From a phage, in sequence record PZ229304.1: a stretch of 64,000 bases of DNA; one strand, written 5' to 3'. The translations under genes and the position numbers were made by a program. This document shows positions 3,413 to 49,097 of the stretch, piece by piece (the first letter of the stretch is position 1; each line of letters starts with the position of its first letter). Below the pieces are notes generated by a model, which did not search any database, was not told the origin of the DNA, and saw nothing but the letters and a program-made list of their open reading frames with translations.

Positions 3413-6187
3413 TTAGTTTACCAGTTTATTTATATCTGGTAAAAGATTTATTTCACCTAAAAAATCACCTTCACCTTCCTCTAACCAACTCTCATATGCT
3501 TGTGCATGATTATAGTTACCATCAAAAGAATCTGCAACAAATTTTTCTACAGTTTTTCGAGATGTGTCAGCGCCAAATACACCAAGTTTAATACCATTGA
3601 TCGGTAAAGTGGTACTTGTTGGTACTTTCTCTGTTGCAACACGGTTGATATCTATAATCTCCTGTACGGTTGTGTTCCATTGTAAGCATTTAACACAACG
3701 GGTATGCGCTACATACAGTAGGTTTCGCTCTGCCTCTTCCAGTCCTACCCATTCACCAGTCTTTTTATCATAGTTGGAAGGAAAATCATTAGCAACAATA
3801 ACCTGATCCCACTCCAAACCTTTAGACTTGTGTGCTGTAGTCAGTGTGACTTTTGCTGTAGGAGAATTTCTATGCGTTCTAAGTGTATGTGCTATAGTGT
3901 TTGCCTTACCAGAAACTACGATGTTTAACAAGCGTTTAGCATCTGGATCAGCCTCTGCACACTCAACAAATTCATTCCAGTCTGCGTAAGGTAATACAGT
4001 TTCATGTTTTACTTTCTCAATATCTCCTCTCCGAAGAGCATTAACACTATCTACCATAGAGATAAAATCCCTGGTATCTACGTTAATAATAATTTCTTCC
4101 CCATCTGCAATACGATCCATTGCCTCCATAAGCAAGGTTAAATTCTTGCGAAAGATGATAGTGTAAGGTTTTGTATAGTCTACAACATCTGATTTGTAGC
4201 TACCTACTACAGTATCAAAGCCTTTACCAACCAAAGGGTGACGCAAAGGTTCTTTATCGCTTAAAATCATATTGGCAATGTTTGCCACTTTGGGGCCAAA
4301 ACGGAAGCAAGCAGTTAATGGAAGCTCTGCTCCATACTTAGCTGTTTCAATCATCATATTAGAGCTACCTCTAAATTGATAAATGCAGTTGTGGCTAAGA
4401 ATTTCATTACCAAAGAAGTTAGCAGTATCCTCTACTTCAATATCATAATAGATACCTTCACTATCTACAATGTCCACAATTTCTTCTGCCGTTACAGTAT
4501 CACCATCTTTTACCAACACAGACATGCCTTTAAACAAACCCGCCGCCGGAATTAAAGTATATTTGGCGGTGTTCACAGAGGACATGCATTCTTTTAAAGA
4601 TGCAAACGGCACTATTTCAAGGATCTTTTGTGCAAAACTCAATGCTTCACGATAAGAATTGAAATATTTACGTACACGGTAACGACCTTCCAACTTAGCA
4701 ACACTTACGCTTACACCTGCTTCAATGAGTGAAGCATAGATTGACATTTCACTTTCTGTCCACTCAAAACTAACTTGTGTTCCTTTACAACCTTGTGCTC
4801 GCAAAGTCACTGTTAACATTTTTCTTTCATCTACTGCACAATTGATGCTGTGCCAATGTGGATAAGCAAAATGATAATCTTTATCCTCTAAAAGTTTAAA
4901 ACCGTTTTGTCCGAATTGTTCAAAAATGTTATTGATCCTTTCTTGATTAATGCCGCGTGAACTTGCTTCAAATACACAAGTAGGAATGCCATATTGTAAA
5001 CTGTATGCCATTTCTTTTTCCATAGCAGCTTCACGGTTTTCAACAATATCCAACACCCATAATTTCTGTGCTTTTTCAGAACGTGTACGTTGCCCCAGTT
5101 TAGAAAAACCTTCTTTATCATCGAATTTGTTAGTGATCCCTACTCGGAAACCTAAATCTTTCCTCCACATTAGGTATACCACCATCTGATCATCTTTCAG
5201 AACATAGGATGAAGCCCAAATACGATGGTTATGTGTCATATCTAAAGTTTTACCTGTGGCAGTAATAATATTCCTACCTTTTGTACGTGTAGATAAAGTC
5301 TTATTTGTTACTTTTCTAAATGTAATTTTACCATTAGAATAAGACTCTACCTTATCACCGATTTGTAGGTCTTTCATTGTAACCTGACCATTCTCGGTAT
5401 TAAGTACCGTGTTTTCCGACACACATTGGAATTCATCGCCCACTACCACAATTTGTTTTGCAGATTTAGCATTTCGCAGAATAGACAAGAATGCAGGGTT
5501 AACATCCTGGAATTCATCACCAAAAATAATGTCATAACCAAGGTCAGCACCTGATAATTCAAACAATTTTACATAGGTGTCATGCGTCATCAAAGTATCT
5601 GTGTTAGGATCGATGCGCTCTCGCCACAATTGTTTTGCATACTTAACTACTTCTGTAATTAGTTTGTGTTCGTTAATACCTTTTCTTTTAATATCTGCAA
5701 GATGTACACTAGGAAAATGTTTACGGCTGATAAAAGGATCATCCGAAAATTCAAACTTACCTACGGTTTGCTTGATCATTAAACCAATCATAGCACGAGT
5801 TAACAGTGTTTTCCCTCGTTTATCAATAAGATTATTAATCTTAAATTTCTTTGCTATCTCGCTACCTGTACCTGCAACGTTAACATACTGTCCTTCTGGT
5901 CGTGACAGTTTTGCACGTAAACGATGATCCAGGAATTGATAGCAAATAGAATGCAATGTACGGCATTCTACATTTAGTGGCATCTTACGTCGTGCTTCTT
6001 CTGCCATGCTTTTATTGAAAGCTAAGTAAAGAATGCGATCTTCTGTACTGTTAGCCAGCAAATAAAGTGTTGACGTTTTGCCTGATCCAGATTTAGCTTG
6101 GATAGTTAAAAAGCGATGGTCTGGAAAAGCCTCCTTAATAGCTGTTTGCTCTTCTGTTGGAGTGAAGCTCAACTCTTTCTTAGCCAT
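3413..6187 (-). CDS. UvrD/PcrA-like SF1 DNA helicase interrupted by an in-frame intein
   Basis: Walker A (AKSGSGKTST), motif II (GDEFQDVNP), motif III split as GDEFQ / C-IYQFRGS, motif V (TAHKSKGLEWDQVIV), motif VI (LLYVAHTRC). Start trimmed from TTG at 6226 to ATG at 6187 with RBS. Confidence 0.8.
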   Translation of the reverse strand: MAKKELSFTPTEEQTAIKEAFPDHRFLTIQAKSGSGKTSTLYLLANSTEDRILYLAFNKSMAEEARRKMPLNVECRTLHSICYQFLDHRLRAKLSRPEGQYVNVAGTGSEIAKKFKINNLIDKRGKTLLTRAMIGLMIKQTVGKFEFSDDPFISRKHFPSVHLADIKRKGINEHKLITEVVKYAKQLWRERIDPNTDTLMTHDTYVKLFELSGADLGYDIIFGDEFQDVNPAFLSILRNAKSAKQIVVVGDEFQCVSENTVLNTENGQVTMKDLQIGDKVESYSNGKITFRKVTNKTLSTRTKGRNIITATGKTLDMTHNHRIWASSYVLKDDQMVVYLMWRKDLGFRVGITNKFDDKEGFSKLGQRTRSEKAQKLWVLDIVENREAAMEKEMAYSLQYGIPTCVFEASSRGINQERINNIFEQFGQNGFKLLEDKDYHFAYPHWHSINCAVDERKMLTVTLRAQGCKGTQVSFEWTESEMSIYASLIEAGVSVSVAKLEGRYRVRKYFNSYREALSFAQKILEIVPFASLKECMSSVNTAKYTLIPAAGLFKGMSVLVKDGDTVTAEEIVDIVDSEGIYYDIEVEDTANFFGNEILSHNCIYQFRGSSNMMIETAKYGAELPLTACFRFGPKVANIANMILSDKEPLRHPLVGKGFDTVVGSYKSDVVDYTKPYTIIFRKNLTLLMEAMDRIADGEEIIINVDTRDFISMVDSVNALRRGDIEKVKHETVLPYADWNEFVECAEADPDAKRLLNIVVSGKANTIAHTLRTHRNSPTAKVTLTTAHKSKGLEWDQVIVANDFPSNYDKKTGEWVGLEEAERNLLYVAHTRCVKCLQWNTTVQEIIDINRVATEKVPTSTTLPINGIKLGVFGADTSRKTVEKFVADSFDGNYNHAQAYESWLEEGEGDFLGEINLLPDINKLVN
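4388..5425 (-). mobile_element. intein (346 aa) inside helicase motif III; central domain may be a homing endonuclease of unidentified type
   Basis: N-terminal Cys (codon aca at 5423-5425 on plus, TGT on minus), block B-like TxxH (MTHNH), C-terminal YDIEVEDTANFFGNEILSHN followed by +1 Cys (4385-4387); removing it restores the canonical motif III GDEFQ-CIYQFRG. Confidence 0.7.
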
Positions 6188-6673: not shown

Positions 6674-7189
6674 CTAGTAAAACCCTTTAACAATTTGTAT
6701 TAACTCGGCACAACGGTTGACCAACTTTTCATCGTACAATACACGTTGTGGCATATTTTGTATAATATACTCCATTTGCTCATGCCATGTCCACTTTTCT
6801 TTTTTGTCCGGGATAACATCACTAGCACGAGAATTATCTTTTAATGTTTGTATAATCCAATTACTTGGAAAGTGCTCTCCACCTTTCTTAAATGGTTTAT
6901 AGTGGCCTAGAGTGAATTGAGAATCCCCTGTTAGAGCACCCAATTTATTTAGATGGATAATCAAACTACGAAACACATAATATTCATAGATGTTATCCAC
7001 CGTATAGCAAGCATAATATTTCAAGATGCCCTTATCTCGCGGATACTTACCAACATCCAGATTGCACCAGTTGACATTTTCTGGGTCATAGTGGTGTTCC
7101 TTAAGCCATATTTCTCTTTCATCAAAGTCTGGATATATTACCGCCCTGCTTACAGAGTCAACAAGTTGAGATTGAGCATCAAAAAACAT
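6674..7189 (-). CDS. hypothetical protein
   Basis: 171-aa track ORF, ATG start. Confidence 0.45.
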   Translation of the reverse strand: MFFDAQSQLVDSVSRAVIYPDFDEREIWLKEHHYDPENVNWCNLDVGKYPRDKGILKYYACYTVDNIYEYYVFRSLIIHLNKLGALTGDSQFTLGHYKPFKKGGEHFPSNWIIQTLKDNSRASDVIPDKKEKWTWHEQMEYIIQNMPQRVLYDEKLVNRCAELIQIVKGFY

Positions 7190-7210
7190 TATATTTTCCT
7201 TATTGGTTTG

Positions 7211-7576
7211 TTAAACGTTTTCTAAATCTTTTAAGGCATTACCCAACGTTAAAACAATAACATCGTTTGCTGCCTCTTCCCCATTGATATTGGTGAAATT
7301 TGGTGTGACAAAAGTAACCATATAAAACTCGTCCACCTGGAAGATAGCAATAACACCATCCATCTTAACATCTTGACGAAAGGAAAAACCAATCATCTTC
7401 TCTTGCAAAGGCATATCCCCTTCCTTCATTACCGCTAGGGAGTTTTCAGGAATGTTATATTTATCTGCTCCTATGTAGATGTACGTAATGTTATCTTTAT
7501 CGTGATGATACAGGGTTGCTTTTTCCATATCTAAACCTGACAAATCAAATACGTTAATTTCTTGTGTAGTCTTCAT
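7211..7576 (-). CDS. hypothetical protein
   Basis: Track ORF trimmed to ATG at 7576 (GGGAGGA RBS). Confidence 0.4.
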   Translation of the reverse strand: MKTTQEINVFDLSGLDMEKATLYHHDKDNITYIYIGADKYNIPENSLAVMKEGDMPLQEKMIGFSFRQDVKMDGVIAIFQVDEFYMVTFVTPNFTNINGEEAANDVIVLTLGNALKDLENV

Positions 7577-7940
7577 AAATATCCTCCCAAATCCAATAAT
7601 CATCTGTGTAAGTAGGATGCCTTTTATCCCACTCTGTTCTAGCCCAAGCAACCGCTGCTACCAACACATCACCATGACAAGGTTGAGGTGAGCAGAAGCA
7701 AACTAAGTCTTTCCCTTCTAATTCTAACAAATCCTCAAGAGTGATTTTACCACAACGAATTTGTTCCCACAACCACTCTTTATATCTTTGTATAGTTGAT
7801 CCTCGTGGTTCGTCATCCTTTAACTTAAAAGGATTTGCAAACTTTGAGGCTTTTAACCCCATATGAGGCATAGCTCTGCCAATGTACACTGCACCTTCAG
7901 GTATTACTTTACCTAAGTGGTAAAAATTTAATACTTTCAT
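7554..7940 (-). CDS. DUF4326-like phage protein
   Basis: LVCFCSPQPCHGDVL motif typical of the DUF4326 family; trimmed from TTG at 7964 to ATG at 7940. Confidence 0.5.
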   Translation of the reverse strand: MKVLNFYHLGKVIPEGAVYIGRAMPHMGLKASKFANPFKLKDDEPRGSTIQRYKEWLWEQIRCGKITLEDLLELEGKDLVCFCSPQPCHGDVLVAAVAWARTEWDKRHPTYTDDYWIWEDIYEDYTRN

Positions 7941-20049: not shown

Positions 20050-20195
20050 GGCTTGACATATGCAAACAAGCCCCGTAATATGTACCACATAAAGCGGGGC
20101 AACGCCCCATAAGGTGAAATAAAAAATCACTTGACACCTGAAATCAGTAAGCTATAATGCTTATATAGATTGAAACATTACTAAGGAATAAAAGC

Positions 20196-20836: not shown

Positions 20837-20924
20837 AAAGCATTGACAGCACGAATAAAAAGCATATAATACTTATATCGAGAGCGGGAATAGTTCCCGC
20901 CTCACTGAAAAAGAGATTAACATC

Positions 20925-40855: not shown

Positions 40856-40895
40856 CTAAAATAAAGCCCCTAGAATCGCTTCTAGGGGCTTTTGT
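40856..40895. terminator. bidirectional terminator at the convergence of plus and minus blocks
   Basis: AAGCCCCTAGAATCGCTTCTAGGGGCTT hairpin with A/T runs on both sides. Confidence 0.6.
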
Positions 40896-40959: not shown

Positions 40960-41217
40960 TTAGGAATGCATAAAATCTTCTTCAGGGCAGGTTGAGAGAT
41001 AAGAGATGCATGTTGGGACAACAACAACATTGTCTTTAAGGTTTTCAACCAAGCCTTTTGTAATCCCAGCCACTGCCCCGTTAATATCTGCTTGACGGAT
41101 ACCAAAACCTTGTTGTGCGGATAGATAACAAAATCCTTCACCTTTCTGTTGATTGTTATTGAAGTAATAAACGTAGTGCATCATAAAATGGTCTTTAACG
41201 ATTTGTTCTGTGGTCAT
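40960..41217 (-). CDS. hypothetical protein
   Basis: 85-aa track ORF. Confidence 0.4.
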   Translation of the reverse strand: MTTEQIVKDHFMMHYVYYFNNNQQKGEGFCYLSAQQGFGIRQADINGAVAGITKGLVENLKDNVVVVPTCISYLSTCPEEDFMHS

Positions 41218-41225
41218 AATATTCT

Positions 41226-41252
41226 CCTATAAGAAAAGGGGCTTTCGCCCCT
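41226..41252 (-). terminator. intrinsic terminator
   Basis: GGGGCTTTCGCCCC hairpin with T-run on the minus strand. Confidence 0.55.
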
Positions 41253-41260
41253 TGGTCAAG

Positions 41261-42073
41261 TTACTTAGTCAAATGATCTTCTATCATTTTTATGAAAGCA
41301 GGATTGCTAAAAGCATCTGCTGCCTTTTCTCTATAAACAAAGACTCCTCTATCTTCGTAAAGAAGAGTTTCTTCGTAATTAATTCCTGGGTTAACAACAA
41401 TCATTTTTGTACCCATAGTAAGTGCAGGGAATAATTCCCAATTAAAATTGATAACTTGGTTTGAACATCCTACTACAACAACCAAATCTTGCATGGTCAA
41501 AGTATCAAACAAGTGAGCCATATCTGCATACAAAGGTGCAGCCTCACCAAAAAATACAACATTAGGCTTCACCCAGTTATAATCATCTATGTTTATACTA
41601 TTGTAACCAATGTCTACCAGTGTTTTGTAATCTCCAGGATGCATACGGTAAACTACTTCAGGAAGATATCCGTGCACGTGAATAACAGAATCCCTGTCTA
41701 CACCTGCTCGCTCTAGTAGGTCATCAACGTTTGTTGTCAAGTTTACTACTTGGTTAGGATATTCCTTAAACCACTTTGCTATTTGAATATGTGCAGCATT
41801 AGGTTGTACATCTTTAAGCTCAACACGTCTTTTGTTATAAAATTCGTGTGTTTTGGCATACAAATCCATACCGTTTTCGTCTACACCACCAACCACTGGA
41901 AGATCTGGTGATGTTCTCACACGATAACCTGCTTGGAAAGCTCCAATATCGCAGATCTCTTCTAAATCCCATTCTTCCCATAGGGCACGACCACTATCTG
42001 TGTCTGTTCGGAATGTTCGAATCCCACTGTCTGCACTTAAACCAGCTCCACTAACAAAAATTACTCTTCGCAT
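41261..42073 (-). CDS. Sir2-family (sirtuin-like) NAD-dependent protein lacking the zinc-binding Cys module
   Basis: GAGLSADSGIRTFR, TTNVDDLLERAG, HG, PNVVFFGE motifs; no CxxC..CxxC pairs. Confidence 0.7.
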   Translation of the reverse strand: MRRVIFVSGAGLSADSGIRTFRTDTDSGRALWEEWDLEEICDIGAFQAGYRVRTSPDLPVVGGVDENGMDLYAKTHEFYNKRRVELKDVQPNAAHIQIAKWFKEYPNQVVNLTTNVDDLLERAGVDRDSVIHVHGYLPEVVYRMHPGDYKTLVDIGYNSINIDDYNWVKPNVVFFGEAAPLYADMAHLFDTLTMQDLVVVVGCSNQVINFNWELFPALTMGTKMIVVNPGINYEETLLYEDRGVFVYREKAADAFSNPAFIKMIEDHLTK

Positions 42074-42615
42074 TCAATATCCTCTTCGTAATCATCATCC
42101 CAAGAAGATGCGTCGTAACGCTCTTCCTCTTCGAAATCCCAATTAATTTCTACTCCAAAATCTAAAAACAATTTAACAATGTTTTCTGTAGAGTAGTATT
42201 TATCATAAGCGTTAGCTAGTTCCCAATACTTGTCACTCAATTTTTTATATTTAGGATCATTATAGTCATAATCTACTTTATAACCATAATCATACATCTC
42301 TTGTTCAGCTTTAAGCATAGCTTCTGGTGTAAGAAGATTAGGGAACGGACGATTTCTTTCTTTTAACTTAGAAACAATCCAGTTTGCAACATTTGCCACT
42401 TCACCATCTTGATTATCACCTAAACAACTTGCATAATCTCCATCTTCGTAAGTGCCTAAATCCCCACAGACTTCATGTACAATAGATGAATACGATCCAC
42501 ACGTTTCACAATCTGAAAAAGTGTCTACTGTTGTAATATCAATAGATAAAACTGGTAAAGCCATAGCTTCTTTCACACAAGCCTCCTCATATAATAACAT
42601 ATCATCAAAACCCAT
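42061..42615 (-). CDS. hypothetical highly acidic protein
   Basis: Trimmed from TTG at 42630 to ATG at 42615 (GGAGGA RBS). Confidence 0.4.
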   Translation of the reverse strand: MGFDDMLLYEEACVKEAMALPVLSIDITTVDTFSDCETCGSYSSIVHEVCGDLGTYEDGDYASCLGDNQDGEVANVANWIVSKLKERNRPFPNLLTPEAMLKAEQEMYDYGYKVDYDYNDPKYKKLSDKYWELANAYDKYYSTENIVKLFLDFGVEINWDFEEEERYDASSWDDDYEEDIECEE

Positions 42616-42669
42616 ATATCCTCCACACAAATAAAGCCCCTGATTGGGGCTTTGGTTAAGTTTTACGGA

Positions 42670-43278
42670 TTATACCAGACTTTTAAGGTACTTGTCAAGG
42701 GCTTCTTGATCACCTTGACAAACATAGCAACGGAAGTCTTGAGCAGAAGGTTCTTTGTCCTCGTCCCAATCCCAATAAACAGTACCTTTATAACGTGAGC
42801 CTGGGAACTCGAAATATGCTGTATGAGTAATATGATGTGGGCCACCCCAAAACTGTGTAAAAGTAAATTGAGGATACGCTGCTTTAACTGTATTTTCAAA
42901 CCAAGTTTTACGATCTAATGCTTCGTTTATAAAATAAGCATGGCGTTCCATTTCATCCCAGTCTTTCCAAACGCATTTTTCATCCAGAGAAAAAACAAAA
43001 TCCTTGCTGTTGAATTCATCTGTATCTTCCAAAATATCATAATCATGTGCACTAGGTATCCACCATCCAGCTTCTAATAGTGCTTTCACGGGTACAAAAC
43101 CTTTTTCAGCATATTGATCAAATTCTTTTACTCTACGTACAGTGCAGTATTCATCTTCACCACCAATGTCCAGTAGACAAGCACCTTTGCGTCTTGCTGC
43201 AAGACCATGTGTATCAAAAACTACAACACTACCTTCACCATCTTCACGATCTACTTGATATGCAACTTTTTGAGTCAT
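42670..43278 (-). CDS. hypothetical protein
   Basis: 202-aa track ORF. Confidence 0.45.
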   Translation of the reverse strand: MTQKVAYQVDREDGEGSVVVFDTHGLAARRKGACLLDIGGEDEYCTVRRVKEFDQYAEKGFVPVKALLEAGWWIPSAHDYDILEDTDEFNSKDFVFSLDEKCVWKDWDEMERHAYFINEALDRKTWFENTVKAAYPQFTFTQFWGGPHHITHTAYFEFPGSRYKGTVYWDWDEDKEPSAQDFRCYVCQGDQEALDKYLKSLV

Positions 43279-43401: not shown

Positions 43402-44391
43402 CTATTCCTCCATACATTTAAGAATATGTGCAATGACAGGTATAGTCCAACCGTTACCTAACATCTTATATGCTTGTGTGTTACTACTCAGCTTAAAGTA
43501 GTCATCTGGCACACCTTGCAAGCGACAACACTCTTTAACCGTTAACTTTCTATAATGTACGCCTTCACTCAATTTTTCAAAAGCATCTAGATATCTTCCA
43601 GGTGGAATGTAGGCTAATAGTACGTCTTTAGGCACAGTCGTGAGGCAACGAGTTTTTTCACTGTCCTGAACTTCCAAACAATGTACCAAACGATCAGTTT
43701 TAGATGTACTACGTTTGCCATTTTCATTAATTCTACGCCCATATATTGCTGCCGGATAAAAAACCAGTTGTCTGCGACTCTTTTCAAAATACTGTTCTAT
43801 ATTACCACCTTTGGCATAATTTGCATCTATGCAATAAGCCTTATCTCTGTCTACAATACTATCATCTTCAATGATATCTTGCAACACTTCATTGGTGATC
43901 TCCCAGGGTTTTATTTCCCAGTTGCACCAGTATAAACGTTGTCTATTCTGTGCCGTGAAATCTGCGGAGTTAATGAATACGGGATCAACACCTAAGTAAC
44001 TTGTGATCACGTTTTCCCACTCCACTTTCATCTTAACGTTTTCAAGCATGAACTTAACATTAGGATTAAACTTTTTAATATGTTCAAGAATTTCAACATA
44101 TTCGAAGAATAGCTTAGATCGCGGATCTTGAAAGTTCAAACCCTTACCAGAAGAAGAGAAGCCTTGACACGGACTACCACCTAACAAAAGATCAATTTCT
44201 CCCCACGGGATATCCCATTCTCTCCATTTTGTAACATCACCTAACTGAATAATATCTGGAAAATTTGCTTGGCTTTCAGCTATGGCAAATTTGTCTAATT
44301 CTGAAGCATAATATGTATCTACTTCAATACCTGCACTTTTTAGCGCAAGCATTCCTCCTGACATACCATCAAAAAGACTTAAAACTTTCAT
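43402..44391 (-). CDS. DNA (cytosine-5)-methyltransferase, orphan
   Basis: Motif I LSLFDGMSGG, motif IV GGSPCQGFS, motif VI ENV, motif VIII QNRQR, motif X GNGWTIPV; no adjacent restriction endonuclease recognised. Confidence 0.8.
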   Translation of the reverse strand: MKVLSLFDGMSGGMLALKSAGIEVDTYYASELDKFAIAESQANFPDIIQLGDVTKWREWDIPWGEIDLLLGGSPCQGFSSSGKGLNFQDPRSKLFFEYVEILEHIKKFNPNVKFMLENVKMKVEWENVITSYLGVDPVFINSADFTAQNRQRLYWCNWEIKPWEITNEVLQDIIEDDSIVDRDKAYCIDANYAKGGNIEQYFEKSRRQLVFYPAAIYGRRINENGKRSTSKTDRLVHCLEVQDSEKTRCLTTVPKDVLLAYIPPGRYLDAFEKLSEGVHYRKLTVKECCRLQGVPDDYFKLSSNTQAYKMLGNGWTIPVIAHILKCMEE

Positions 44392-46237: not shown

Positions 46238-46558
46238 TTAACAAGTAATATTTGGAATAATACTGGGAGTAACAATTGGAGTAATAGGGTACGTAAACCA
46301 AGGGCTTCCAATTTCCCAAGGACTATAAGGTGTACGAGGATCAAATGGAGGCGTTACTTGAGGCTTTTTCCAAATCTCCGCTAGTTGTTTCTTCCATTTA
46401 TCCCTTGCTGTATCGTTATCTTCATCCAACTGTTCGTCATTATCTTTTATTTCTGATTTTGGAAATAAAAGCTCTTTGACTAACTCAACGTCTTCCGTTT
46501 CAATAGTAGTTTCTTTCGTAATATTCCCTACCGTCTCTTTAATTGTGACTTTATACAT
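46238..46558 (-). CDS. hypothetical protein
   Basis: 106-aa track ORF. Confidence 0.4.
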   Translation of the reverse strand: MYKVTIKETVGNITKETTIETEDVELVKELLFPKSEIKDNDEQLDEDNDTARDKWKKQLAEIWKKPQVTPPFDPRTPYSPWEIGSPWFTYPITPIVTPSIIPNITC

Positions 46559-47304
46559 TAGTCCTCCTCTAAAGTAGAATAAAATTGTAACGTATTTGAA
46601 TCATCAAAATATGCAAAGGTTAAATTACCATTGAAGCAAGATCCTGTGTCCATATATACCCTATTACTGCTAATTACAGGTTTAGGAACATAAGAATGCC
46701 CGTGAAATACATAATCTACTCCTGAAACTCTAGGAAGAAGAATCCCTTCAAGGGCGCAATCTATCATATCACGATCCCACATTAAAGATTCTGTGAATCG
46801 AGATACTTGCTCTTTATTCATATTCAAACAAAATGGCAAAACTTCTGTCACTGGTAAATGTTCCAAAACTGAAGGATACCCACCGTGAATAAAGCCTAGT
46901 TTCATATCACGATAATTGACAACAAGTACAACAGGTAAATCTTCTAGCATCAAAGCAAGAGCAGTTGCACCCTCTTCTCCACACTCGTCTAGAACTGTAT
47001 GGCCTCCGTTCTGAAACCAACATTCGTAATATCGTCTATCACCTTCTAGCAACCCTTTAATCATCATATCTTCATGATTTCCACGAATACCATAACGATT
47101 TAGCTTTCTGGTGAATTCAACAACACAACGAAAATTCTGCTTGCCGCGATCTGTAAGATCTCCTAAAGATACAACAACATCTTGATCTCGGATACCTAAA
47201 GTATTAACACCTTTCTGGTACAAATCAAAGCAACCATGTAAATCACCAATAATAAATAGGTCTTGATCATCTTTTACACTAATTTCTTGATATACTAGCA
47301 TCAA
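46558..47304 (-). CDS. Ser/Thr protein phosphatase (metallophosphoesterase, lambda-PPase-like)
   Basis: GDLHGCFDL, GDLTDRG and GNHE motifs. Confidence 0.75.
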   Translation of the reverse strand: MMLVYQEISVKDDQDLFIIGDLHGCFDLYQKGVNTLGIRDQDVVVSLGDLTDRGKQNFRCVVEFTRKLNRYGIRGNHEDMMIKGLLEGDRRYYECWFQNGGHTVLDECGEEGATALALMLEDLPVVLVVNYRDMKLGFIHGGYPSVLEHLPVTEVLPFCLNMNKEQVSRFTESLMWDRDMIDCALEGILLPRVSGVDYVFHGHSYVPKPVISSNRVYMDTGSCFNGNLTFAYFDDSNTLQFYSTLEED

Positions 47305-48434: not shown

Positions 48435-49097
48435 TTATTTAATATTCAATTTTGCACAAAGACGTTGTACCGCTTTGGCATCGAACAAACTCCCACGAAT
48501 AGTTCTCTTTCCTGATTCATTCAGATGCTTTGCAATCGTCATATATGGCGTTTTACAAGCTCTGTATGCAACTAAAGAATCTTTTAAAGAAAGCGCAAAC
48601 TCTTTTGAGCGTTTTGCTTCTTCCGTTTTCGTATAATCTGTTCTTTTGTATTTAGGGTTTGCTGCACCAAGAAGCGTTCCCTTCGCTTTTGCTACCTTAA
48701 GGCTCTTCTTAACACGATCAGATATTGCACGAGCCTCTTCTTCTGCCAGAACTGCTAAAATATTTATTATCATATTTTCAGCGGAGGGCATAGTTGCTAT
48801 TCGTACATTAATCATCTCTAACAAGGTTGCAACAGAAGCTGTGTTACGTCCAAGACGGTCAACCTTAGCAACAACAAGTGTAGCACCTGTTTCTTTGCAA
48901 AGATTAACAGCTTTTACAAGCTCTCTACGTTGCTTCCAATCGCCTTTACCAGAATAAAACTCTGCAAAGCTACCTACAATAGTATAATTTTCTTGTGAAT
49001 CCAGGAAGCGTTGAATATCTGCTTCCTGTGATTCTATACCATACTGGTTGCCTTGTTGTTTCTTCTTAGAAAGTCGATGATATAGTACAAACTTCAT
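48435..49097 (-). CDS. serine recombinase (resolvase/invertase family)
   Basis: N-terminal YHRLSKKKQ (candidate catalytic Ser), LVVAKVDRLGRN, AEEEARAISDRVKKSLKVAKAKG; about 220 aa, so the small resolvase/invertase class. Confidence 0.65.
   Translation of the reverse strand: MKFVLYHRLSKKKQQGNQYGIESQEADIQRFLDSQENYTIVGSFAEFYSGKGDWKQRRELVKAVNLCKETGATLVVAKVDRLGRNTASVATLLEMINVRIATMPSAENMIINILAVLAEEEARAISDRVKKSLKVAKAKGTLLGAANPKYKRTDYTKTEEAKRSKEFALSLKDSLVAYRACKTPYMTIAKHLNESGKRTIRGSLFDAKAVQRLCAKLNIK

Follow-up and report, generated by a model that had tools for sequence, protein, structure and literature searches.

A class III, CobB-like sirtuin without zinc ligands in a phi92-like phage of Escherichia coli and its predicted role

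Results

A sirtuin gene in a Justusliebigvirus genome

The stretch of phage DNA analyzed here (sequence record PZ229304.1; 64,000 nucleotides, called the window below) carries an open reading frame (ORF) on its minus strand, from 41261 to 42073, that extends from an ATG start to a stop codon and encodes a protein of 270 amino acids. By its sequence, the protein is a class III, CobB/SIRT5-like sirtuin in which the zinc ligands are absent. The original prediction for this locus was a Sir2-like protein of a lytic phage with intact signatures for the binding of nicotinamide adenine dinucleotide (NAD) and no zinc-binding module. The window has a G+C content of ~37% and contains long blocks of co-oriented genes; all features named below lie on the minus strand unless marked with a plus sign. 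Over the 2.4 kb tested, the source phage is 99% identical to Escherichia phage JLBYU50 and 98% identical to VEcB, PaulScherrer (Bas60) and further members of Justusliebigvirus. The phage thus belongs to Justusliebigvirus (Stephanstirmvirinae) and is a virulent phi92-like myovirus of E. coli, as the word "lytic" had implied.

The protein matched the Pfam family SIR2 (PF02146) with an E value of 2.8e-22 and 80 bits, against a gathering cutoff of 24 bits, and it matched PHROG 2162, "Sir2 (NAD-dependent deacetylase)", over its full length (E = 5.8e-104). The best sequence match in the PDB was E. coli CobB (E = 6e-18), followed by Sir2Af2, Sir2Tm, SIRT5 (E = 5e-9) and Sir2Af1; chains of CobB and SIRT5 were matched with E values from 6e-18 to 1e-8. 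We take Sir2Af1 to be class III-like and Sir2Af2 and Sir2Tm to belong to other sirtuin classes. Since the Pfam, PHROG and PDB matches were all significant, the match to the sirtuin family is, at the level of sequence, far beyond chance. The features expected of a Sir2 protein are present, namely the family profile, a Rossmann core with the GAGxS, NxD and HG motifs and a two-domain fold; the four-cysteine structural zinc site of the superfamily is absent. The top matches among the NCBIfam models were all CobB-type "NAD-dependent protein deacylase" models, but the equivalog cutoffs of the CobB models (NF040867, NF001755 and others) were not reached, with 104.5 versus 243 bits and 84.1 versus 320 bits. 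Because these scores are far below the cutoffs, the phage sirtuin is, as judged from the profiles, a relative of CobB and not its orthologue.

The gene is widespread. With tblastn, it was found in 983 phage records, with identities from 99% down to ~30%, and the carriers included phi92-like phages, Phapecoctavirus, T5-like phages (Demerecviridae), rV5-like, Mydovirus-like and KVP40/nt-1-like phages and GAP32-like jumbo phages. Nearly all of the 983 records already label the gene Sir2, sirtuin or CobB. Searched exhaustively with HMMER, 1.84 billion cluster representatives yielded 2043 matches, of which the top 141 full-length sequences were aligned. A scan of GTDB with one genome per species, for which an alignment of seven sequences served as the query, yielded for the most part ordinary class III sirtuins of bacteria. 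The phage sirtuin clade is uniformly acidic, with isoelectric points (pI) of 4.65 to 5.77. The region is also present in GenBank entries MG065650, MG065639 and MG065692 ("Campylobacter phage B15", "A150" and "C13"), whose proteins are 94 to 97% identical to those of E. coli Justusliebigvirus or T5-like phages; these entries are probably mislabelled or contaminated.

The NAD pocket and the catalytic residues are conserved

The NAD-binding Rossmann signatures had been described as intact, and alignment to CobB confirmed this. The Rossmann motif GAGxS is present as GAGLS (codons 9 to 13, 42035 to 42049) and aligns with GAGISAESG of CobB; G9, A10 and G11 are invariant in the representatives without zinc ligands, and S13 is nearly so. 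The TQNxD motif, which contacts the nicotinamide ribose, reads TTNVD (codons 113 to 117, 41723 to 41737) and has Thr114 in place of the glutamine. N115 is invariant, and D117 and T114 are each present in 124 of 125 close homologues. The threonine tracks the loss of the zinc-module cysteines described below, being found in 33 of 48 zinc-less representatives versus 8 of 87 with three or more cysteines. The catalytic histidine of the HG motif, codon 134 (41672 to 41674), aligns with the histidine in IHMHG of CobB and is invariant in the 141 distant representatives as well as in the 125 close homologues. The class III pair YxxR is present as YNKR (codons 79 to 82, 41828 to 41839), aligned to FYNARR of CobB, and in the sequence alignment Y79 and R82 correspond to Tyr92 and Arg95 of CobB, which were reported to be important for desuccinylation (PMC6636992).

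Further motifs are intact as well: S16, F21-R22, H132-V133-H134-G135, F174-F175-G176-E177, G202-C203-S204 and N228-P229. In the 125 close homologues, Y79, R82, N115, H134, F175, E177 and N228 are 100% conserved. In the 141 distant representatives, N115 is invariant like H134, D117 is nearly so, and Y79 and R82 predominate. A loss of catalytic residues on careful alignment, which would have spoken for a non-enzymatic paralogue, was therefore not seen. By these residues, the sirtuin is apparently active and catalytically competent.

The zinc-binding stretch is retained without its cysteines

The whole protein contains only two cysteines, C41 and C203. The counterpart of the zinc module, codons 136 to 170 (41564 to 41668), comprises 35 residues, YLPEVVYRMHPGDYKTLVDIGYNSINIDDYNWVKP, and none of them is a cysteine. 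It spans the region from HG (H134-G135) to KPNVVFFGE, where canonical sirtuins carry CxxC...CxxC. The usual cysteine pairs are thus indeed absent. The stretch itself is normal in length and is predicted to form beta-strands at 135 to 143, 151 to 154 and 167 to 172, with a predicted local distance difference test (pLDDT) score of 94 to 96. Because it is modelled as beta-strands with this confidence, the small beta-module is, according to the model, retained and only the metal ligands are gone. Of the claim that the zinc-binding module is missing, the part on the ligands stands; a deletion of the module itself does not.

Loss of the ligands is found throughout the close relatives, with no cysteine in the module in 91 of the 125 close homologues and one in the remaining 34. 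Among the 141 aligned representatives, 48 have zero or one cysteine there and 87 have three or more, and an "IGY" motif at the module's centre is common to the zinc-less and the CxxC...CxxC representatives. Zero or one cysteine was also found in 46 of 77 bacterial class III sirtuin loci sampled from GTDB genomes; these come from Bacteroidota, Flavobacteriales, Halomonas, Marinobacter and others. Many of these sampled bacterial sirtuins have the motif ELxKxRS...GD.C..G.QLRPH. Moreover, a close zinc-less relative (P0133) sits in a clearly chromosomal bacterial context. Since the bacterial loci and this chromosomal relative share the loss, it is, on these alignments, common and not phage specific, and the four-cysteine site is typical of sirtuins rather than universal. 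Zinc-less sirtuins in acetic acid bacteria have been noted in an in silico study (PMC11820453).

The predicted structure resembles deacylase sirtuins

An AlphaFold2 model built on 52 homologues was confident, with a pLDDT of 91.7 and a predicted template-modelling (TM) score of 0.88. Its sole weak stretch, residues 21 to 30, is taken to be the mobile cofactor loop. Structure prediction and comparison with the sirtuin classes, which had been proposed as a check of the original prediction, place the protein near CobB. A Foldseek search of the PDB returned CobB as the top match (E = 7e-17, target TM score of 0.84), followed by Sir2Af1, Sir2Af2, SIRT5, SIRT2 and Hst2. The model superposes best on the deacylase sirtuins CobB, Sir2Af1, SIRT5 and SIRT4 and much more poorly on the antiphage SIR2 NADases and SirTM: the fold-comparison figures were 21.5 for Sir2Af1, 19.2 for PfSir2A, 18.6 for SIRT4, 17.8 for SIRT1, 15.1 for SirTM and 9.5 to 14 for the antiphage SIR2 proteins (PsSIR2, HerA-Sir2, KomC, ThsA and Avs5). 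Both the YxxR pair and the class of the nearest characterized relatives assign the protein to class III.

The helical part of the small domain contains an insertion of ~22 residues (codons 45 to 70, 41864 to 41941), which is modelled with a pLDDT of 90 to 95. The stretch from residue 44 to 72 has 29 residues here, 34 in the T5-like phage Sepoy and 28 in the Phapecoctavirus nepoznato; its counterpart has 7 residues in rV5-like phages, in nt-1 and in most of 150 representatives. The insertion is thus confined to the nearest relatives, the Stephanstirmvirinae and T5-like phages.

Gene order and transcription signals around the sirtuin gene

The sirtuin gene is preceded by a gene for an acidic protein of 184 residues with a pI of ~4 (42061 to 42615), whose 3' end overlaps the sirtuin start by 13 nucleotides. 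The longer form of this ORF (42061 to 42630) encodes 189 residues with a pI of 4.05 and 46 aspartates and glutamates. The protein has three conserved cysteines (C36, C39 and C64) and a poly-acidic tail, and no structural relatives were found for it in the PDB. It is labelled "putative aminoacyl-tRNA synthetase" in the records of the BASEL collection, but a Pfam scan gave nothing beyond a subthreshold match to PheRS_B1 (E = 0.023). Further upstream is an ORF of 202 codons (42670 to 43278) without an assigned family. Both neighbours are as originally described, a highly acidic protein and an unassigned protein of 202 residues.

A sigma-70 consensus promoter-like site, TTGACA, an 18-nucleotide spacer and TG-n-TATAAT, lies at 42669 to 42698; it matches the consensus at 12 of 12 positions and overlaps the last codons and the stop of the 202-codon ORF. 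Perfect sites of the type TTGACA-N16-18-TATAAT occur three times in the window, against 0.13 expected. The other two, at 20131 to 20158 (+) and 20843 to 20870 (+), probably serve the plus-strand block as strong early promoters. Between the promoter-like site and the acidic-protein gene lies a GC-rich, terminator-like hairpin of eight pairs with a weak T tail (42633 to 42653). GGAGGA precedes the ATG of the acidic-protein gene at 42615, and the sirtuin ATG at 42073 has GAGGA upstream. A second terminator-like hairpin, AAGGGGCGAAAGCCCCTT followed by TTCTTAT, starts 8 nucleotides past the sirtuin stop (41236 to 41253); a "terminator" is annotated somewhere under the 2.4-kb match in related records. 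In view of the consensus promoter, the ribosome-binding sites, the 13-nucleotide overlap and the flanking hairpins, the acidic-protein gene and the sirtuin gene appear to form a unit of two genes under the control of a host-type promoter.

The last gene of the minus-strand cluster encodes 85 residues and matches PHROG 15991 (40960 to 41217). A strong terminator 3' of it (40863 to 40892) closes the minus-strand block, which meets the converging plus-strand block at ~40.8 to 40.95 kb. The GC skew changes sign at ~12000 and ~41000, and the latter position coincides with the switch of the gene strand.

The synteny of acidic protein and sirtuin is limited to the Stephanstirmvirinae. In nepoznato, a gene for 246 residues (4477 to 5217) lies between the acidic-protein homologue and the sirtuin; it has a weak, subthreshold HNH_3 match (22.2 bits versus a cutoff of 24.8) and is possibly a homing endonuclease. 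In Erwinia jumbo phages, the acidic-protein homologue does not adjoin a sirtuin. When ten neighbour proteins (orf85 to orf190) were compared by tblastn with the rV5-like, T5-like and nt-1 loci and four metagenomic Sir2 loci, no shared operon partner was found, with the lone exception of a lambda-phosphatase-like protein beside a bacterial sirtuin homologue. By this comparison, neither the acidic protein nor the 202-residue protein accompanies the sirtuin as a conserved partner beyond the Stephanstirmvirinae. The neighbour genes have no paralogues within the window.

RNA-repair genes and NAD-related genes in a wider context

In other phages, relatives of the sirtuin gene lie among genes for RNA repair. 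In rV5-like AlexBoehm, genes for an Rnl1-type RNA ligase, cREC_REC and the sirtuin come in this order, and genes for PNK and a phosphoesterase adjoin them. Two small genes downstream of its sirtuin, Sepoy encodes a HAD_SAK_2 ("Swiss Army Knife RNA repair") phosphatase. This protein, gp119 (locus 7214 to 7720), carries a second "Sir2" label in RefSeq, which is wrong, since the protein has a HAD_SAK_2 domain (Pfam E = 6.8e-18). On a T4-like metagenomic contig (4917 to 7181), a zinc-less sirtuin is flanked by RlaP, a nucleotidyltransferase of RNA-repair pathways, and by a NADAR domain gene, which lies directly 3'. Another metagenomic relative adjoins PTH2 and has a faint RNase_T match 1 kb downstream, and yet another lies near cREC and a weak Metallophos match.

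The phi92-like genome also has the full cassette of cREC, phosphoesterase, RNA ligase and PNK, but it is located outside the window, ~31 kb from the sirtuin. The homologue of the 237-residue gene that lies 3' of the rV5-like sirtuin stays near the cassette in the phi92-like genome. No RNA-repair domain was found among the genes scanned in the ~9 kb upstream of the sirtuin (to 51.2 kb), a scan that left out small ORFs and the converging plus-strand genes. The only enzymes seen there were a Dcm-type C5 cytosine methyltransferase (43402 to 44391; Pfam E = 2e-43) and a homologue of the lambda Ser/Thr protein phosphatase (46558 to 47304; PDB 1g5b, E = 4e-30), 4.5 kb upstream of the sirtuin. A resolvase-family serine recombinase is also encoded in this region (48435 to 49097; E = 8e-22). 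On a bacterial chromosomal contig, a homologue of the phosphatase (6925 to 7659; 29% identity, E = 4e-19) is encoded immediately downstream of a zinc-less sirtuin, and the pairing of sirtuin and phosphatase may be recurrent.

NAMPT and PRPP synthetase are encoded by PaulScherrer, which is 98% identical. The related genome also encodes a macrodomain protein, ~46 kb from the sirtuin, and a YbiA/NADAR protein.

Discussion

A zinc-less phage sirtuin as such was already known, since near-identical genomes already carry the annotation, the zinc-less state of the phage family was published in 2016 and zinc-less forms are common in bacteria. Skliros et al. (PMC5107563) modelled the Sir2/CobB proteins of the Vibrio phages phiSt2 and phiGrn1, noted that the finger domain has no zinc ligand and put forward salt bridges in place of zinc. 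They found the catalytic histidine and the acetyl-lysine tunnel (FxE/xNP) conserved, listed homologues in T5, SPC35, GAP32 and My1 and proposed that host enzymes, for example acetyl-CoA synthetase, are deacetylated; the transcript level of the Vibrio phage homologue was high 20 min after infection. The finding itself therefore adds little, and the original prediction is partly supported, its reading of an intact enzyme being right. What gives the protein weight is its conservation in ~1000 virulent phage genomes from at least five lineages (T5-like, rV5-like, phi92-like, KVP40-like and jumbo phages), together with two concrete and mutually exclusive predictions for its reaction, a lysine deacylase and an enzyme that removes 2'-phosphates from RNA. 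The outcome of an assay would tell whether the phage rewrites the acyl-proteome of its host or whether sirtuins can act in the repair of nucleic acids. If active, the protein would also show that the small domain of a sirtuin folds and works without zinc.

We put at about one in two the probability that the protein is an active class III sirtuin that removes acyl groups, probably including succinyl-type groups, from lysines of host or phage proteins. The homology, the fold, the invariant histidine, F175 and E177 of the FGE motif and the YxxR pair all agree with this reading, and for the Vibrio phage homologue Skliros et al. likewise arrived at a deacetylase. Activity, the acyl-lysine substrate and the time of expression are what we infer; family, fold, residue conservation and gene organization are what was observed. 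The gene would be coexpressed with the overlapping acidic-protein gene from the consensus host-type promoter. The Rossmann pocket would bind NAD+, and the acylated lysine would enter the tunnel that the Rossmann domain forms with the small domain; its acyl oxygen would attack C1' of the nicotinamide ribose, upon which nicotinamide leaves, and His134 would activate the 2'-OH of the ribose, to give the free lysine and O-acyl-ADP-ribose. The nicotinamide set free could be returned to NAD synthesis through the NAMPT that the phage encodes in another part of its genome. Tyr79 and Arg82 are invariant in the close homologues, and the pair therefore suggests a preference for acidic acyl groups (succinyl, malonyl) besides acetyl. 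The acidic pI of the clade is weak evidence in the same direction, since it fits a protein-modifying enzyme better than one that binds RNA ends.

Several points weigh against a lysine deacylase. The glutamine of the TQNxD motif is replaced by threonine throughout the clade, which may bear on catalysis, and the intact NAD pocket and histidine fit deacylation and other NAD-consuming transfers alike. There is no conserved protein partner and no candidate substrate, the orthologue lies directly beside RNA-repair genes in two other phage families, and a search of the full-text literature found no biochemical or genetic experiment on a phage sirtuin. Moreover, host CobB was reported to restrict T4 and lambda (PMC4271551), and a CobB-like deacylase is therefore not obviously of benefit to a phage.

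The neighbourhoods in AlexBoehm and Sepoy lead to a possible but doubtful alternative, a role in RNA repair, which was predicted from gene neighbourhoods by Iyer, Burroughs, Anand, de Souza and Aravind in 2022 (PMC9503650, section 3.7.3) and whose contexts were confirmed here in these two phages. Host anticodon nucleases cut tRNA or mRNA, and after opening of the 2',3'-cyclic phosphate a 2'-phosphate would be left; the sirtuin would transfer ADP-ribose from NAD+ onto this phosphate, which would then be released as ADP-ribose 1'',2''-cyclic phosphate in a KptA/Tpt1-like manner, so that the ligase can seal the ends. By our own reasoning, these two steps have a formal parallel in the catalysis of sirtuins. 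The metagenomic relatives beside RlaP and NADAR, PTH2 and cREC agree with such a role, as does the full repair cassette retained by the phi92-like genome. In that genome, however, the sirtuin is ~31 kb away from the cassette and its immediate neighbours are free of RNA-repair domains, and it is the homologue of the rV5-like 237-residue gene, not the sirtuin, that has stayed with the cassette. F175 and E177 of the FGE motif, which in the sirtuin family line the acyl-lysine tunnel, are strictly conserved, and a polynucleotide 2'-phosphate would be hard to fit into a narrow lysine tunnel. The acidity of the clade, with a pI of ~5, also argues against RNA as the substrate.

A broader version, which we consider unlikely, is that the zinc-less clade as a whole has left protein deacylation for a substrate linked to nucleic acids or tRNA and counters abortive infection that targets RNA. 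The reaction would be either the KptA-like removal of 2'-phosphates from RNA or the reversal of the N-acylation of aminoacyl-tRNA by host toxins. In phi92-like phages, the sirtuin and the overlapping acidic protein would then make up a self-contained early module.

The protein could also consume NAD as an effector or in counter-defence, as the original prediction had suggested. It would then be a NADase or an ADP-ribosyltransferase, with host proteins to be modified or immune signals derived from NAD to be destroyed. Sirtuin domains can have both activities (reviewed in PMC9503650), the KVP40 homologue was first described with a role in NAD+ hydrolysis (according to PMC5107563), and the phage genome is rich in NAD- and ADP-ribose-related genes (NAMPT, PRPP synthetase, macrodomain protein and YbiA/NADAR), a NADAR gene lying directly 3' of one relative. 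Such a role is nevertheless improbable. The PADLOC profiles gave no significant match, the best having an E value of 0.0066 over 37 residues, and neither a defence-SIR2 profile match nor a fusion or adjacency to a sensor or partner (SLOG, HerA, pAgo or STAND) was found. The HG motif retains its histidine, while in the ADP-ribosylating SirTM class it reads QG and a macrodomain gene lies next to the sirtuin gene (PMC4518038), and a phage with its own NAMPT would presumably gain little from a constitutive NADase.

A non-enzymatic or decaying paralogue, in which the loss of the four typical structural-zinc ligands destabilizes the small domain and leaves the protein inactive or able only to bind NAD or a partner (a question of stability that was raised by Skliros et al. 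for the Vibrio phage protein [PMC5107563]), is very hard to reconcile with catalytic and binding residues that are invariant, D117 nearly so, in both sets of relatives, with the retention of the gene in ~980 phage records of several families at 30 to 99% identity, with the confident model of the zinc-less module and with the frequency of zinc-less versions in bacterial chromosomes.

Among known systems, E. coli CobB and human SIRT5 are the best match in sequence and fold. They share with the phage sirtuin the GAGxS, FR, NxD, HG, FGE and Tyr-x-x-Arg motifs and a similar single-domain size, but the identity is only 26 to 28%, and they bind a structural zinc, for which the phage protein has no cysteines. 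Compared with CobB, the phage sirtuin has Thr114 for the glutamine of TQNID, 22 additional residues in the helical module and 4 in the cofactor loop. The antiphage SIR2 NADases (ThsA, DSR1/2, SIR2-HerA, SPARSA, Avs5 and KomC) have the sirtuin-type Rossmann core in common with it and, to our knowledge, are also devoid of a zinc module. Identity with SirTM (class M) was ruled out, since HG is kept (H134-G135) and no macrodomain gene is adjacent; SirTM also binds zinc (PMC4518038), and the phage sirtuin has no zinc site. The Vibrio "schizoT4-like" phages phiSt2, phiGrn1 and KVP40 encode members of the same sirtuin family, and the homologue of nt-1 shares 37% identity across 99% of the length, but the Vibrio phage sirtuins do not have the 22-residue insertion and their neighbours differ from those of the phi92-like locus. 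By sequence, the protein belongs to the phage sirtuin clade of Iyer et al. (PMC9503650), whose prototypes are the rV5 and T5-like (SP15) sirtuins, with full-length identities of 47% to rV5-like AlexBoehm and 59% to T5-like Sepoy. The neighbourhood described for this clade (RNA ligase, cREC, PNK, HAD_SAK, 2H and Nudix) is found in AlexBoehm and Sepoy but not among the scanned genes of the window, where the phi92-like sirtuin appears instead in a two-gene unit with the acidic protein.

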